From: Fidelibacterota bacterium MT.SAG.2 | GTDB taxonomy: Bacteria; Fidelibacterota; SORT01 | Assembly (NCBI GenBank): GCA_004402915.1 | Contig: SORU01000003.1 | Location: 15,718-79,717, forward strand | Reading direction: 5' to 3' | DNA: 64,000 nt | Part shown: in pieces, positions 6,905 through 20,107 of the stretch | Position numbering within the stretch: position 1 is the stretch's first letter | Layout of the letters: each line of letters starts with the position of its first letter | Made by a program: the position numbers and the translations under genes | Notes under the pieces: model-generated | The model's input: the letters and a program-made list of their open reading frames with translations, nothing else | Databases searched by the model: none | What the model was told of the DNA's origin: nothing

Positions 6905-6980
6905 GCTCCCGTAGCTCAACTGGCAGAGCACCGGACTCTTAATCCGTAGGTTGTTGGTTCGATTCCAACCGGGAGTACCA
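6905..6980 (+). tRNA. tRNA-Lys (anticodon CTT)
   Basis: 76 nt. Acceptor stem GCTCCCG/CGGGAGT, D arm GCTC/GAGC, anticodon loop CT-CTT-AA (one C.T mismatch at the top of that stem), T loop GGTTCGATTCC, encoded CCA end. Confidence 0.95.
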
Positions 6981-12876: not shown

Positions 12877-12992
12877 CTCCTGAAATAGGACGGTGCCATA
12901 AACGAAGGTGATGAGACACATTTTAAGTTTTCCAAAAACGTATGTTAAAACACCTAAAGAGAATTAAATTGGCAATCATTTCCCTTGTGAAG
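12877..12992 (+). repeat. Longest copy of the dispersed 'ATGAGACACATTTT' intergenic repeat family (others at 6993-7031, 9459-9502, 16265-16307, 31491-31534, 35174-35215)
   Basis: Pairwise by-eye identities: 9459/31491 36/44; 6999/12917 28/33; 12877/35174 about 32/44; AATCATTTCCCTTG shared by 12974 and 16289. Confidence 0.65.
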
Positions 12993-15216: not shown

Positions 15217-15636
15217 ATGAATAAATCAAAATTAACAAAGCCTGAATCGATTGAAACTCCGCAAAAACCAATGCTGATATTTGATAATGAATGTGGATTT
15301 TGCAGTGGAATGGCTTTCAAATGGCAAGAAAAGACCGGCGAGCAAATCAGATTTGTGCCTTACAACGAAATCTCCGAAAACTTGCGGGATCCTGCCATCG
15401 AAGGATTCGAAAATGAAATGAAATTACTGTATCCTGACGGCAGGGTTTACAGCGGCGCAGCCGCCGCTTTCAAGGTGATAGAACATTCAAAATCTCCTCT
15501 GAGAGTATTAAGCTGGTTTTACAATAACACTCGTTTTTTTGACCCAATCTGGGAAGGAGTTTACAAGATAGTAGCGAGAAACAGGAATAGGTTTACGTTT
15601 GCAAAAGGAGTATCAACTCATAAACATAATTTTTGA
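15217..15636 (+). CDS. DCC1-like thiol-disulfide oxidoreductase (DUF393)
   Basis: 'LIFDNECGFC' (DxxCxxC) and 'YKIVARNR'. Confidence 0.85.
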   Translation: MNKSKLTKPESIETPQKPMLIFDNECGFCSGMAFKWQEKTGEQIRFVPYNEISENLRDPAIEGFENEMKLLYPDGRVYSGAAAAFKVIEHSKSPLRVLSWFYNNTRFFDPIWEGVYKIVARNRNRFTFAKGVSTHKHNF

Positions 15637-16217: not shown

Positions 16218-16361
16218 AGCTGTGTCATCAGCTCCGCTTATCACAGAAAATTTCGCGTTGCCCTAACGCCTAAAAGGATTATTTCAGAAATCATTTCCCT
16301 TGCGGAGATTTCATCGAAGCGTTATCTTTCAAACCTGATTCTTATTTAGAAAGGATATTGA

Positions 16362-16472
16362 TTGACGCCTATTGCACCTAAACATAAGCTTGCTGTAATC
16401 ATGTTTTCCGACATGGTAGGGTATATCACTCAGAGGGAAAATCTAATAAAAATTACCATATTTGCGCAATGA
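16362..16472 (+). pseudogene. 36-aa N-terminal remnant of a class III adenylate/guanylate cyclase
   Basis: SD AGAAAGGA, then TTG; reads MTPIAPKHKLAVIMFSDMVGYITQ..., matching the cyclase 'RKLAAIMFTDIVGYT' motif, then stops overlapping (ATGA) the next gene. Confidence 0.6.
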
Positions 16473-17308
16473 GTTGGGAAATGTCAAAAAATCGTGTGGA
16501 GGCATTCACTGACGGCGTATTGGCGATCATAATTACAATTTTAGTATTAGAACTGGATATGCCTGAAATGCCTGCAAGTGCTAATGGAAGTGAATTTATC
16601 TCCATCCTTCCCGAATTGATGCCACAGCTAATTTCATATCTGGTTAGTTTCTTAGTTGTTGCCATATATTGGGTCAATCATCATAGCTTCTTCCATCGTC
16701 TGTCAAGTACTAACCATACACTTATCTGGCTAAATGTACACTTTCTATTCTGGGTGTCCTTAATCCCATTCCCGACAGGTCATATGGGGGAACATCCGTT
16801 CTCAATAATGGCCAATGTTATCCTGGCTGCAGTATTCTTTATGGGTTCTTTATCCTTTAAGATGATGTCGAGTTATTCCATGTTTGGGAGTAATATTTGC
16901 CAGGATTCTTTACAACATGAAGAGAAGAAACGTATAGCCCGTATTGAATGGATAGGTCCTATTCTTTACGCAACGGCTATTGGAATCGCCTTTATCGATA
17001 CAAGAATTTCCATACTGCTGATGATCGTTACGCCTTTAGTTTACTTCATTCCTGCAAGGGAAAAGAAGAAGGTCAGAAGCATTCGGAATGAAAAGGGAGT
17101 CATTAAGGAATATACCAACGACAATATCAAGATAACTTGGAAACCGGAATTGTGTGAACATGCCGGCAACTGCTTTAACGGGCTTCCTAAGGTATTCAAT
17201 CCCAAGGAACGCCCATGGATTAATATTGACGCAGCCACGAGTGAGGAGATTATCCATCAGGTTAATCATTGTCCCACCGACGCGCTTTCATTCATAAAAA
17301 TTAAATAA
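16469..17308 (+). CDS. TMEM175-family K+ channel fused to a C-terminal divergent 4Fe-4S (Fer4_19/YjdI-like) domain
   Basis: 'RVEAFTDGVLAIIITILVLEL', 'YWVNHH' and 'SLIPFPT' (TMEM175); tail 'ITWKPELCEHAGNC...FNPKERPWIN...CPTDALSF'. Confidence 0.8.
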   Translation: MSWEMSKNRVEAFTDGVLAIIITILVLELDMPEMPASANGSEFISILPELMPQLISYLVSFLVVAIYWVNHHSFFHRLSSTNHTLIWLNVHFLFWVSLIPFPTGHMGEHPFSIMANVILAAVFFMGSLSFKMMSSYSMFGSNICQDSLQHEEKKRIARIEWIGPILYATAIGIAFIDTRISILLMIVTPLVYFIPAREKKKVRSIRNEKGVIKEYTNDNIKITWKPELCEHAGNCFNGLPKVFNPKERPWINIDAATSEEIIHQVNHCPTDALSFIKIK

Positions 17309-17490
17309 GAAGAGCTGATTTAGTCGATTAGATTTGAATTCTATTAATTTTGGTCAATCCTCACAAAACATATAATAAAACTCCCAATAGGTTTAATCTG
17401 GTATTCATTTTTCTTGCGGGAGAATGCAACAAGAGGTATTTTCAATTCTTAGCAAGTATATTCAAATTATAAAAATAGAAAGATATAAAT

Positions 17491-18408
17491 ATGCAGAATA
17501 AAAAATTCGTATTCCAAAATGTTTTGATGATAATTTTATGGTCATTGTTACTTAATACAAACATTGGCGCAAAAGGCTTACCGGAACATACGACCAAAGT
17601 AGCCGACGGAGTTTATACTTTCGGTGATCCCGCCGGAGGATATATATCAATGTTTGTCGTGACTAAAAAAGGAGTTATAGTTGTAGAGCCTAATAATACA
17701 GCGCATTCTACCGCAATGTTAAAAGCGATTAAGAAGGTTACAAAGAAACCCATTAAATATTTACTTCACAGCCATAATCATTGGGATCATTCCGGCGGTG
17801 GACAAGTTTTCCGAGATGTGGGAGCAACCATCATAGCACATGCAGAGGCCTATGAATGGATGAAGGCGAATCCGAATGATGATATGGTTTTACCCGATGA
17901 AAGTTGGGCTGGCAATAGAAAAAATATTGAATTGGATAAAAGAACGATCGAATTGTATTATTTCGGAATGAATCATGGCTTAGGCATGACAGTGTTTCGA
18001 CTTCCGAAAGATAAAATAATTTTTATCGCGGATATCGTCACTCCCAACCGCTTACTTTTCACAATTGTGCCTGATTTTAACGTAAAGGAATGGATACGAA
18101 CTCTTAAAGAGATCGAAGAGATGGATTTTGAGAAAGTTATTTTCACTCATGGGAGCCCTACTGTCGGAACAAAAAAAGATATTGCCGGGAATCGTGAGTT
18201 TATAGAAGATTTACAAAACGCGATCTACGCTGAATTTCAAAAAGGAACAAACCCGTTCATGATTCCCAACGTTGTTAAAGTACCTAAATATGAGAAGTGG
18301 GCTATGTATGATGAATGGTTGACTATGAATGCCTGGAGACTGCTTCTGGACGGTCATATGGGTCCCTTTCCTTGGAGACCGGACCATCCTTATGAGATGA
18401 ACAAGTAA
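17491..18408 (+). CDS. Exported metallo-beta-lactamase-fold hydrolase
   Basis: Signal peptide; 'SHNHWDHSGG' HxHxDH motif. Confidence 0.85.
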   Translation: MQNKKFVFQNVLMIILWSLLLNTNIGAKGLPEHTTKVADGVYTFGDPAGGYISMFVVTKKGVIVVEPNNTAHSTAMLKAIKKVTKKPIKYLLHSHNHWDHSGGGQVFRDVGATIIAHAEAYEWMKANPNDDMVLPDESWAGNRKNIELDKRTIELYYFGMNHGLGMTVFRLPKDKIIFIADIVTPNRLLFTIVPDFNVKEWIRTLKEIEEMDFEKVIFTHGSPTVGTKKDIAGNREFIEDLQNAIYAEFQKGTNPFMIPNVVKVPKYEKWAMYDEWLTMNAWRLLLDGHMGPFPWRPDHPYEMNK

Positions 18409-18458: not shown

Positions 18459-18836
18459 ATGAAAATTGCTCTTTGGATTGCACATATACTGCTCATATTC
18501 ATGTTCGGAATGACCGGATATATGAAAGCTTTTACACCGATTGAAGAGTTAGCTTCCCGGATGGACTGGGTAACTTCCGTGCCTGTGTGGATTGTTAGAT
18601 TAGCAGCTGTCTCTGAACTCTCTGCCGTGCTGGCACTTATTGCTATTCCCCTAATAAAGCGATACACATTCCTTGTTCCTTTAGCGGCGGCAGGACTGAC
18701 ACTCATTATGGTCGGTTCGCTGTTTGTTCATGTCCCACGTGGCGAACCGTTCATATTTAATCTGGTGATTGGTGGAGTAGCTGCGTTTGTCGCTTGGGGA
18801 CGCTGGAAACTGATGCCCGTTGGTGAAGGTAGTTAA
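18459..18836 (+). CDS. DoxX-like membrane protein
   Basis: Four hydrophobic segments; 'AAAGLTLIMVGSLFVH' and 'AFVAWGRW'. Confidence 0.8.
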   Translation: MKIALWIAHILLIFMFGMTGYMKAFTPIEELASRMDWVTSVPVWIVRLAAVSELSAVLALIAIPLIKRYTFLVPLAAAGLTLIMVGSLFVHVPRGEPFIFNLVIGGVAAFVAWGRWKLMPVGEGS

Positions 18837-18886: not shown

Positions 18887-20107
18887 ATGAAAAAGAAGCC
18901 CCAAAAACCGGAGACAGACAACTCAAAATATAGGCTTTTGGAAGAAGCGCTCCGCGAAAGTGAGACGAAATTTCGCTATGTTGTGGAAGCCGCCGCTGAC
19001 GGAATAATAACTGCGGATGGTATGGGCAAAATAGTCTCGTGGAATGGAATGGCACGAAAAATGTTCGGCTATAAAGATAAGGAAGTGATCGGTAAACCTC
19101 TGACATTTTTAATGCCGGAACGATATATTCCCGGACATACAAAGGGTGTAAAGCGATTTATTGAAACCGGCAAATCCCGTGTAATCGGGACAGTTTACGA
19201 AGTTCATGGATTAAGAAAAGATGGAAGTGAATTCCCTTTGGAGCTCTCACTTGCAAGTTGGGACCTGGGGAAAGGAAGATTTTTTGCCGGTATTCTTCGG
19301 GATATCACTGAGCGTAAAGAAGCAATGGATCGTCTCAAAGAAGCAAACAAGAACCTAAAAGAAACTCAAGTACGGCTAATACAATCAGAGAAAATGGCTT
19401 CGATTAGCATGCTCGTTGCTGGGATAGCGCACGAGATCAACAATCCGATGGGAGCTTTGATAAGCATGCAGGACACTTCTGAGAGAGCTCTGGAAAAGTT
19501 GAAGAGTCTGATCTCAAAAGATATAGAAATGTCAGCTGAGATAAAAAAAATCATGAAGGTAATCGATGATTCAAATGAAGTTATAAATCTCGGAGCCGAA
19601 AGAGTCGAAATGATCGTCAAACAATTAAAAAGTTTTGCCCGGCTTGATGAAGCCGAATTACAAACCGCTGACATCCATGAAGGTATCGACCAAGTGTTGA
19701 GTCTTATTCATCAGAATATGAAGAATCGAATTACCATCAGTAAAAGCTACGGAAAAATTCCAAAGATACGATGCTACCCGGCGAAGCTTAATCAGCTGTT
19801 CCTCAACATGATAATGAACGCTGATCAAGCAATGCCGAAGAAGGGAACGCTTACAATCACGACTTACTTAAGAAAAAATGATGTTTACATTGAGTTTAAG
19901 GATACTGGGATCGGTATTCCGAAGGATAACCTAAACCGAATTTTTGATCCGGGATATACAACAAAAGGCGTTAGCGTAGGAACAGGATTAGGATTATCCA
20001 TATGTTATCAAATAGTCCAGGAGCATAATGGAGAAATAAAGGTTACGAGCAAAGAAGGAAAAGGAACTACCTTCAAAATAATCCTCCCTAAGAAAATGAC
20101 TTTATAA
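18887..20107 (+). CDS. Cytoplasmic PAS-domain sensor histidine kinase (FixL-like PAS)
   Basis: PAS/PAC ('LMPERYIPGH', 'GLRKDGSEFPLELSL'), H-box 'AHEINNP', 'DTGIGIP' and 'GTGLGL'. No TM segments. Confidence 0.88.
   Translation: MKKKPQKPETDNSKYRLLEEALRESETKFRYVVEAAADGIITADGMGKIVSWNGMARKMFGYKDKEVIGKPLTFLMPERYIPGHTKGVKRFIETGKSRVIGTVYEVHGLRKDGSEFPLELSLASWDLGKGRFFAGILRDITERKEAMDRLKEANKNLKETQVRLIQSEKMASISMLVAGIAHEINNPMGALISMQDTSERALEKLKSLISKDIEMSAEIKKIMKVIDDSNEVINLGAERVEMIVKQLKSFARLDEAELQTADIHEGIDQVLSLIHQNMKNRITISKSYGKIPKIRCYPAKLNQLFLNMIMNADQAMPKKGTLTITTYLRKNDVYIEFKDTGIGIPKDNLNRIFDPGYTTKGVSVGTGLGLSICYQIVQEHNGEIKVTSKEGKGTTFKIILPKKMTL

Follow-up and report, generated by a model that had tools for sequence, protein, structure and literature searches.

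Human TMEM175 counts among the risk genes of Parkinson's disease, hence the wide interest in this family of ion channels. The physiological role of the prokaryotic members has been stated to be unknown (PMC10216561). The roles of their pore and network residues have been described, and the hydrogen-bond network formed by the RxxxFSD signature with a Trp and a His residue was located on the intracellular side of the membrane (PMC7176437). A second family, Fer4_19 (YjdI-like), is defined by the motif CxHx3Cx32CP (bioRxiv 10.1101/2024.04.03.587993). The only experimentally characterised member, the Fer4_19 domain of the class E flavodiiron protein of Syntrophomonas wolfei, carries a [3Fe-4S]1+/0 cluster with a midpoint potential of +70 mV; its conserved His does not ligate the cluster, and in isolation the domain is dimeric (bioRxiv 10.1101/2024.04.03.587993). 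In the stretch of DNA analysed here (64,000 nucleotides of contig SORU01000003.1 from Fidelibacterota bacterium MT.SAG.2; in the following "the window"), a gene at positions 16469..17308 of the plus strand joins these two families in one polypeptide chain. The DNA comes from a Marinimicrobia/SAR406-like marine bacterium that is uncultured. The fusion is real, conserved, very rare and of single origin, and it puts a putative iron-sulfur (Fe-S) domain beneath an ion channel.

Architecture of the fused gene

The gene consists of a single open reading frame (ORF) of 279 amino acids plus stop codon, in which a channel module, a basic linker and an Fe-S domain follow one another in one frame. This is supported by the ORF list and by both Pfam domains, and the same one-ORF architecture occurs in the homologous clusters P0001-P0010 described below. 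The TMEM175 profile (PF06736) matched amino acids 9-100 (E-value 6.8e-30; 103.8 bits at a cut-off of 25) and the Fer4_19 profile (PF06902) amino acids 215-276 (E-value 4.7e-23; 81.4 bits at a cut-off of 24; 62 of the 64 profile positions). A scan of the protein against NCBIfam found no model.

Between the two domains, behind the sixth transmembrane helix (TM6), lies a strongly basic linker of 16 residues (amino acids 197-212, positions 17057..17104, plus strand; REKKKVRSIRNEKGVI), which reads REKKKVRSIRNEK. The predicted local distance difference test score (pLDDT) is low at residues 201-206, and R197, E198, K200 and R206 are invariant across the fused clade in an alignment of the ten clusters. 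A preliminary description of this DNA had reported an intact module of six transmembrane helices that runs in one frame through a basic linker into a domain with CEHAGNC...CP ligands, and every one of these particulars is borne out by the ORF, the Pfam matches and the AlphaFold model.

No second cofactor or redox domain besides Fer4_19 was detected in the chain by the Pfam scan, nor was an RCK/KTN nucleotide-binding domain or a CPA2 membrane domain. A CDGSH domain (PF09360) was not found at E-values up to 1, and the chain stops three residues past the Fer4_19 match. The protein contains four cysteines, of which only C144 lies outside the Fer4_19 motif.

Distribution and origin of the fusion

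A word-indexed search of 5.8 billion proteins, with clusters drawn at 90% identity, yielded ten clusters (P0001-P0010; 70-100% identity, 248-289 amino acids) that possess both Pfam domains in one chain. The respective contigs stem from independent ENA, JGI, NCBI and Logan assemblies and from separate samples. Among them are metagenome-assembled genomes (MAGs) labelled Candidatus Marinimicrobia/Neomarinimicrobiota at NCBI and one labelled "Bacteroidetes bacterium". A one-off loss of a stop codon or an assembly error, both considered in the preliminary description, does not agree with the ORF being continuous in relatives down to 70% identity. Relatives with two separate genes, which had been named there as a refutation, were not seen among these. 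Short cluster members of 84-98 amino acids were examined as stand-alone Fer4_19 genes representing a split state and were rejected, because they turned out to be a truncated copy or pieces cut off at contig ends: the frame of P0271 stays open up to the end of its contig, and P0274 and P0275 are N-terminal fragments. P0270 (L012:2176-2529) comprises the tail of TM6 and Fer4_19 with 78% identity directly behind a cheW gene, and represents a relic left by a deletion or else a chimeric contig.

When the window gene was compared to the homologues at loci L009 and L010, the channel part showed a ratio of non-synonymous to synonymous substitution rates (dN/dS) of 0.07 and the Fe-S part one of 0.17, at a dS of about 1.4 or saturated. 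Both halves are under purifying selection and have been kept together through a long divergence, as follows from synonymous sites near saturation in combination with a low dN/dS.

The fusion is confined to few genomes. Among the best matches listed by HMMER in a search of 1.84 billion representatives at 50% identity, only the window's own cluster was full-length; the remaining top matches were unfused channels of about 200 amino acids or two-repeat forms. Other scanned matches of 250-360 amino acids contained no Fer4_19 domain and had N-terminal extensions or fusions to GNAT_CG or SnoaL_2 instead. One of these proteins, P0185 (359 amino acids), is a TMEM175 protein with a rare C-terminal SnoaL_2 (NTF2-like) domain. 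Two long apparent matches (L047 and L062) were considered as further fusions and rejected, since they are ordinary TMEM175 genes encoding 201 and 213 amino acids. In about 185,000 species genomes the fusion occurred twice, the one other genome being MAG B12T1B10. It was found neither in sister species of the same genus and family nor in 400 sampled genomes of the phylum, in which TMEM175 itself is uncommon.

In phylogenetic trees of either part, the fused sequences form one clade. In the TMEM175 tree this clade (98 in the Shimodaira-Hasegawa-like approximate likelihood-ratio test, SH-aLRT) adjoins unfused channels, and in the Fer4_19 domain tree (SH-aLRT 94) it is nested within proteins that combine Fer4_19 with CDGSH. 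Apart from the fused sequences, all Fer4_19 relatives of similar closeness are Fer4_19-CDGSH proteins of about 140 amino acids. The fused domain starts exactly where these proteins start (…KEYxNDxIxVxWKP…) and ends where their CDGSH half would begin. Judged by these sequences, the Fer4_19 half descends from Fer4_19-CDGSH proteins, and the simplest history would be a read-through of a TMEM175 gene into a downstream Fer4_19-CDGSH gene, of which the CDGSH part was lost. The nearest of the named unfused channels (L014, Cyclobacteriaceae, 48% identity) opens a gene cluster that closes with a Fer4_19-CDGSH gene. With regard to a pre-fusion state, nothing informative was present downstream of P0121, the unfused sister in the tree, on its contig of 1.1 kb.

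The TMEM175 channel module

The six-helix membrane module comprises amino acids 7-192 (positions 16487..17044, plus strand), as indicated by the AlphaFold helices, by Foldseek and by phmmer. In the AlphaFold model, which was built from 66 sequences, the helices span residues 7-27, 40-77, 83-108, 113-140, 150-173 and 178-192, and the membrane part mostly has a pLDDT >90. The best structural match was CmTMEM175 of Chamaesiphon (5VRE; E-value 5.8e-8; TM-score 0.81, normalised to the target), followed by the structures of human and Marivirga TMEM175. With phmmer, the fused protein matched 5VRE across amino acids 7-193 (E-value 5e-24).

The pore-lining helix TM1 is encoded at positions 16487..16549 (plus strand), and its functional positions were assigned by alignment to CmTMEM175. 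It carries the signature RVEAFTD (R9, D15), in which Ser of RxxxFSD is replaced by Thr; relatives have either FSD or FTD. The gate residues I20, I24 and L27 correspond to I23, L27 and L30 of CmTMEM175, and T23 corresponds to the selectivity threonine T38 of MtTMEM175. R9, D15, A19, I20, T23, I24, L27, W68 and H71 are all conserved, with no variation at R9, D15, W68 and H71 in either the fused or the unfused sequences. The pore columns of TM1 are invariant or nearly so in the nine of ten fused clusters that cover this helix and in 54 unfused sequences; P0010 is truncated and does not cover TM1. By sequence, no residue whose role in bacterial TMEM175 has been described is missing. Because all residues of pore function are kept, the membrane part is predicted to be a working channel module and not a degenerate anchor. 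Like other bacterial TMEM175s, the protein is presumably a tetramer and weakly selective for K+.

One residue distinguishes the channel body of the fused proteins. All ten fused clusters have a Cys at position 144, which is encoded by the codon at 16898..16900 (plus strand) in an invariant ICxDSL string of the cytoplasmic loop between TM4 and TM5; none of the 54 unfused homologues of the alignment has it. The acquisition of this cysteine is a single evolutionary event and as such no statistical proof. It suggests that the channel body has adapted to the new domain, possibly by providing a fourth ligand or a redox-active thiol.

The Fer4_19 iron-sulfur domain

The YjdI-like Fer4_19 domain (amino acids 213-279, positions 17105..17305, plus strand) has a predicted ferredoxin fold, as indicated by Pfam (PF06902), by a model of the domain and by Foldseek. 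The AlphaFold model of the C-terminal 70 residues alone, based on 74 sequences, reached a pLDDT of 94.4. In the Foldseek search, single-cluster ferredoxins were on top (1FXR, 4OV1, 1VJW and the [Fe3S4] ferredoxin 1SIZ), with TM-scores of 0.57-0.67, probabilities of 0.41-0.99 and weak E-values (0.09-1.4). A sequence search of the PDB found no solved structure of a Fer4_19 domain.

The predicted ligands are located in two segments. C229-E-H231-A-G-N-C235 (17153..17173, plus strand) provides the first two putative cluster cysteines and the conserved His, and C268-P269 (17270..17275, plus strand) provides the third, at a spacing of 32 residues from C235 that matches the family motif. The whole string C229-x-H231-x3-C235-x32-C268-P269 is thus an exact fit to CxHx3Cx32CP. 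This motif is invariant in the ten fused clusters and in the 74 aligned Fer4_19 sequences; within the fused alignment C229, H231, G233, C235, C268 and P269 do not vary. Because the exact motif is shared with the only characterised Fer4_19 domain, the predicted cluster is most likely, by analogy, one [3Fe-4S] per subunit bound via C229, C235 and C268, rather than a [4Fe-4S] cluster.

Fe-S clusters are assembled in the cytoplasm. The Fer4_19 domain is on the cytoplasmic side of the membrane, since the signature network is intracellular, the module has six helices and the linker is strongly basic.

According to the preliminary description, YjdI-type domains usually stand alone or are fused to CDGSH domains. 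Both forms occur, and the domain is in addition present in flavodiiron proteins and in chains with CDGSH, Rieske and glutamate-synthase domains. In the same genus/family, a protein of 320 amino acids (L005:952-1914, minus strand) contains Fer4_19 in the order CDGSH-Fer4_19-CDGSH-Rieske, and a longer form (L006:1243-3192, plus strand; at least 650 amino acids) runs on into an apparent glutamate-synthase-type domain; the domains of both proteins were read by eye.

Proposed function and alternative explanations

It is proposed that the fused protein is a cation channel modulated by the redox state or the integrity of its predicted Fe-S cluster, and we give this reading about even chances. A tetrameric TMEM175 channel in the plasma membrane would carry four cytoplasmic Fer4_19 domains with one Fe-S cluster each. 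The redox state or integrity of the clusters, which may respond to oxidants, O2 or nitric oxide (NO), to the state of quinones or electron donors, or to the supply of iron, would alter the conformation or packing of the four domains. Their rearrangement beneath the channel would modulate the opening of the pore, so that the cation flux, and hence the membrane potential and the cytoplasmic pH, would track the redox, electrophile or respiratory state of the cell. Sensing is favoured over catalysis, because the chain contains no other redox domain that could accept electrons. The redox- or iron-gated channel with four clusters envisaged in the preliminary description is plausible in view of the conserved ligands, the cytoplasmic placement and the stress genes in the neighbourhood. 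A [4Fe-4S] cluster is not to be assumed.

Several observations speak against a cluster-modulated channel. TM6 is peripheral in the TMEM175 structures, so that a C-terminal domain has no obvious route to the gate in TM1. The position of the Fer4_19 domain in the full-length model is of low confidence (pLDDT 49-75). Elsewhere, in other architectures, Fer4_19 resembles an electron-transfer module. The synteny of the fused gene is not conserved, as the window and the loci L009, L010, L102 and L106 all differ. Finally, it is mainly cyclase genes, and not stress genes, that have the same promoter-like element as the fused gene.

A more specific variant involves the cysteine of the TM4-TM5 loop. In this model, which we regard as a long shot, C229, C235 and C268 together with C144 would hold a [4Fe-4S] cluster shared by the sensor and the channel body. 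Oxidants or loss of iron would turn this cluster into [3Fe-4S], which would free the TM4-TM5 loop and switch the pore. If so, the protein would be the first case of an ion channel under direct gating by its intrinsic Fe-S cluster, and bacterial TMEM175 channels would be effectors of the oxidant and electrophile stress response.

Among the competing explanations, the one that survives best, although it is unlikely, takes Fer4_19 as an electron-transfer or docking module, which TMEM175 tethers to the membrane or for which it recruits a soluble partner such as a CDGSH protein, conduction being independent of the cluster. Elsewhere Fer4_19 is indeed part of electron-transfer chains (class E flavodiiron proteins, CDGSH proteins and CDGSH-Fer4_19-CDGSH-Rieske(-glutamate synthase) proteins), and the fused domain is nested among Fer4_19-CDGSH sequences. 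The chain, however, offers no second cofactor domain, and channel residues as constrained as these (dN/dS 0.07) indicate that the membrane part is no mere anchor, for which six helices with an intact pore would not be required.

It is quite unlikely that the domain is purely structural, i.e. that it serves the assembly or stability of the tetramer with a cluster that is structural or absent in vivo. C-terminal bundles aid assembly in other tetrameric channels, the isolated flavodiiron Fer4_19 domain is dimeric, and the small domains that are otherwise, in rare cases, appended to the C-terminus of TMEM175 (GNAT_CG, SnoaL_2) are unrelated. A structural role would nevertheless leave it unexplained why the clade keeps all three cysteines, the His and the CP without change while their surroundings vary, and unfused TMEM175s assemble without such a domain (PMC10216561).

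Still less probable is a cluster that reports the supply of iron or sulfur by its holo or apo state, whereupon the channel would adjust the cation balance to the iron status. Gating by iron had been put forward in the preliminary description, and sensors based on Fe-S occupancy are well known (IscR, aconitase/IRP1). Yet iron-uptake genes or genes of the Fur/IscR type were not present near the fused gene in any of the loci viewed, and the neighbours point to the detoxification of oxidants and electrophiles. The idea that the fusion is an artefact of mis-assembly, a sequencing frameshift or a recent stop-codon loss, for which its rarity (one representative in 1.84 billion), its absence from sister species and the existence of a TMEM175-GNAT protein both fused and split at >90% identity might be adduced, is extremely improbable and effectively refuted by ten clusters from ENA, JGI, NCBI and Logan that share the continuous ORF to 70% identity, by two intact halves in spite of saturated synonymous sites, by the conserved linker residues and by the apparent short "split" members, which are contig-edge fragments.

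Gene neighbourhoods

The neighbours of the fused gene and of its nearest unfused relatives are often genes of the oxidant and electrophile stress response. They point in one direction and none of them is decisive; because synteny is not conserved, this theme is only suggestive and the fused gene has no fixed partner. In the window, the gene is accompanied by genes for a DCC1-like thiol-disulfide oxidoreductase (15217-15636), a secreted MBL-fold hydrolase (17491-18408), a DoxX_2 (DoxX-family) membrane protein (18459-18836) and a PAS histidine kinase (18887-20107). At other loci with the fusion, the start of a glyoxalase/VOC gene overlaps the stop codon of the channel gene (L102-L105), or an OsmC gene is located just upstream (L009).

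Unfused relatives show similar arrangements. OsmC follows 6 bp after the channel gene at L015 and L016, and an NADPH-dependent F420-type oxidoreductase gene directly follows it at L014 and L040. The tight co-directional cluster at L014:6001-11144 comprises genes for TMEM175, an F420-type NADP oxidoreductase, two pirins, a DUF6069 membrane protein, a nitroreductase, OsmC and the Fer4_19-CDGSH protein, and looks like a quinone or oxidant stress operon.

In an unrelated TMEM175 lineage, an operon of MarR, pirin, TMEM175 and GNAT_CG (a YjdJ-like acetyltransferase) was detected (L098:3765-5873 and L099:3741-5858, also L100 and L101). Here, at >90% identity, some contigs encode TMEM175 and GNAT_CG as one protein of 285 amino acids, and others have separate genes with 18 bp between them. 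The neighbour of yjdI (Fer4_19) in E. coli is yjdJ (GNAT_CG), so that TMEM175 has been joined to each half of the yjdI-yjdJ pair. From a different bacterium, a DUF1211/TMEM175 protein was reported with a 7.8-fold increase, among the most induced proteins, in the proteome of an oxygen-tolerant Bifidobacterium (PMC12110750).

In the window itself, the sole match of the Rfam scan was a tRNA gene (6905-6977), and the GC content gave no indication of a foreign island.

Promoter-like element and upstream leader

The fused gene is preceded by a promoter-like element of a direct-repeat family (D1) at positions 16255..16335 (plus strand), which consists of TCATTTCCC-TTGCGG (16300-16305), a spacer of 17 nt and TATCTT (16323-16328). 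The element is 60-75 nt long, with the core TCATTTnnC-TTGCGR, 17 nt, TAtCTT and about 30 nt of conserved sequence upstream of the core. A second copy (17379..17442, plus strand; TTGCGG at 17414-17419, 17 nt, TATTTT at 17437-17442) precedes the next gene, and a third copy with one mismatch lies at 12976-12990 of the window. Further copies in the genome are located at C2:47210 and C2:48509 (L109:1711 and 3010). Exact copies occur four times in the genome versus 0.3 expected, and genomes of the same family contain 1-7 copies. A generic scan for sigma-70 promoters and terminators performed no better than on shuffled sequences.

The element also precedes the fused gene at L102-L108. The segment 16250-17421, the right end of which is marked by the second copy, is common to the window, L106-L108 and L097 at 91% nucleotide identity, and the flanking genes differ. 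In sister genomes, the element is mostly found before paralogous genes of class III adenylate/guanylate cyclases that begin with MPSEPKRKLAAIMFTDMVGY…, and also before YgaP-like_TM mini-proteins, an MBL-fold gene and others. The 41-nt direct repeats that bracket the gene were considered as ends of an integron-like cassette; this was rejected, since they are copies of a promoter and 5'-leader that mostly precede class III cyclase paralogues.

Between the element and the channel gene, a degenerate 5' remnant of a class III cyclase gene (…APKHKLAVIMFSDMVGY…) was recognised at 16362..16472 (plus strand) by comparing its translation with the MPSEPKRKLAAIMFTDMVGY… paralogues. This remnant makes up the 110 nt in front of the channel start; it has lost its start codon, and the TGA of its frame overlaps the ATG of the channel gene. 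An internal ATG at 16401 opens an upstream frame of 23 codons that ends in the same overlap (ATGA). At L106 the same overlapping frame is present, and at L102 the frame is kept with its stop 2 nt before the ATG. The frame may be an upstream ORF that couples translation or a mere relic. The channel gene thus appears, by its sequence, to have captured a cyclase-type promoter and leader, and recombination between dispersed elements would explain the differing gene positions in close relatives.

Novelty and significance

Both domains belong to known families, and their combination is apparently undescribed: literature searches on TMEM175, iron-sulfur, Fer4_19, YjdI and DUF1211 found no TMEM175-Fer4_19 fusion, so that the corresponding statement of the preliminary description holds as far as the literature was searched. 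In public databases, the fused sequences are named "DUF1211 domain-containing protein" and a fragment "(4Fe-4S)-binding protein".

Where nature has joined a channel to a sensor-type domain, the fusion serves as a "Rosetta stone" for the signal to which the channel is coupled. The signal indicated here agrees with the genes that surround the closest unfused channels (OsmC, pirin, nitroreductase, glyoxalase, NADPH oxidoreductase, Fer4_19-CDGSH). The fusion may be a first clue to the purpose of bacterial TMEM175 channels. If the channel is gated by the cluster, it would be, as far as we found, the first ion channel with its own Fe-S cluster, a compact and genetically encodable transducer of 279 residues from redox state to membrane potential, and the Fer4_19/YjdI family, of which little is understood, would gain a function. 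Only a small clade of uncultured marine bacteria has the fusion, and whatever goes beyond its anatomy is inferred; the fusion is valuable mainly for the testable hypothesis that it offers on the stimulus sensed by bacterial TMEM175 channels.

Comparison with known systems

Cation flux under the control of redox conditions is known from other systems; of KefC/KefF and of mitoNEET acting on VDAC, the proposed channel would be a counterpart within a single polypeptide. In E. coli, KefC/KefF and KefB/KefG are glutathione-gated K+ efflux systems, the former activated by electrophiles, and the Kv-beta subunits are a comparable case. The likeness is that a cation flux is tied to redox or electrophile stress via an attached cytoplasmic sensor, and quinone-oxidoreductase and glyoxalase themes occur nearby. 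In contrast to the fused protein, the membrane fold is unrelated (CPA2 antiporter-like, with KTN/RCK) and the ligands of the sensor are glutathione adducts or NAD(P)H, so that the analogy is functional only. A redox-dependent gating of a channel by an Fe-S protein has been described for mitoNEET and VDAC1 (PMC6778226). MitoNEET belongs to the CDGSH family, the partner of Fer4_19 in bacteria. Unlike the fused protein, this eukaryotic system consists of two proteins, its channel is a beta-barrel and its cluster is [2Fe-2S]; it is likewise an analogy only.

The Fer4_19 domain of the S. wolfei flavodiiron protein and YjdI of E. coli belong to the same Pfam family as the fused domain and share the identical CxHx3Cx32CP motif. 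The S. wolfei domain feeds a flavodiiron catalytic core and YjdI stands alone, whereas the fused domain sits on an ion channel without any other cofactor domain. Its closest relatives, with up to 56-63% identity, are the Fer4_19-CDGSH proteins (about 140 amino acids) of Bacteroidota, Leptospiraceae and Ignavibacteria. In these, Fer4_19 is N-terminal and is combined with a [2Fe-2S] CDGSH domain, while the fused protein has no CDGSH domain and carries Fer4_19 at its C-terminus; judged by the domain phylogeny, it is a descendant of this group and not a member.

With CmTMEM175 (5VRE) and MtTMEM175 (6HD8), the fused protein has in common the six-helix fold, the RxxxF(S/T)D signature, the Ile/Leu gate, the Thr layer and the Trp/His network. 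Both of these channels end a few residues past TM6 and have no cytoplasmic domain. The fused protein extends beyond them by the basic linker of 16 residues, the Fe-S domain of 67 residues and the clade-specific cysteine in the loop between TM4 and TM5.

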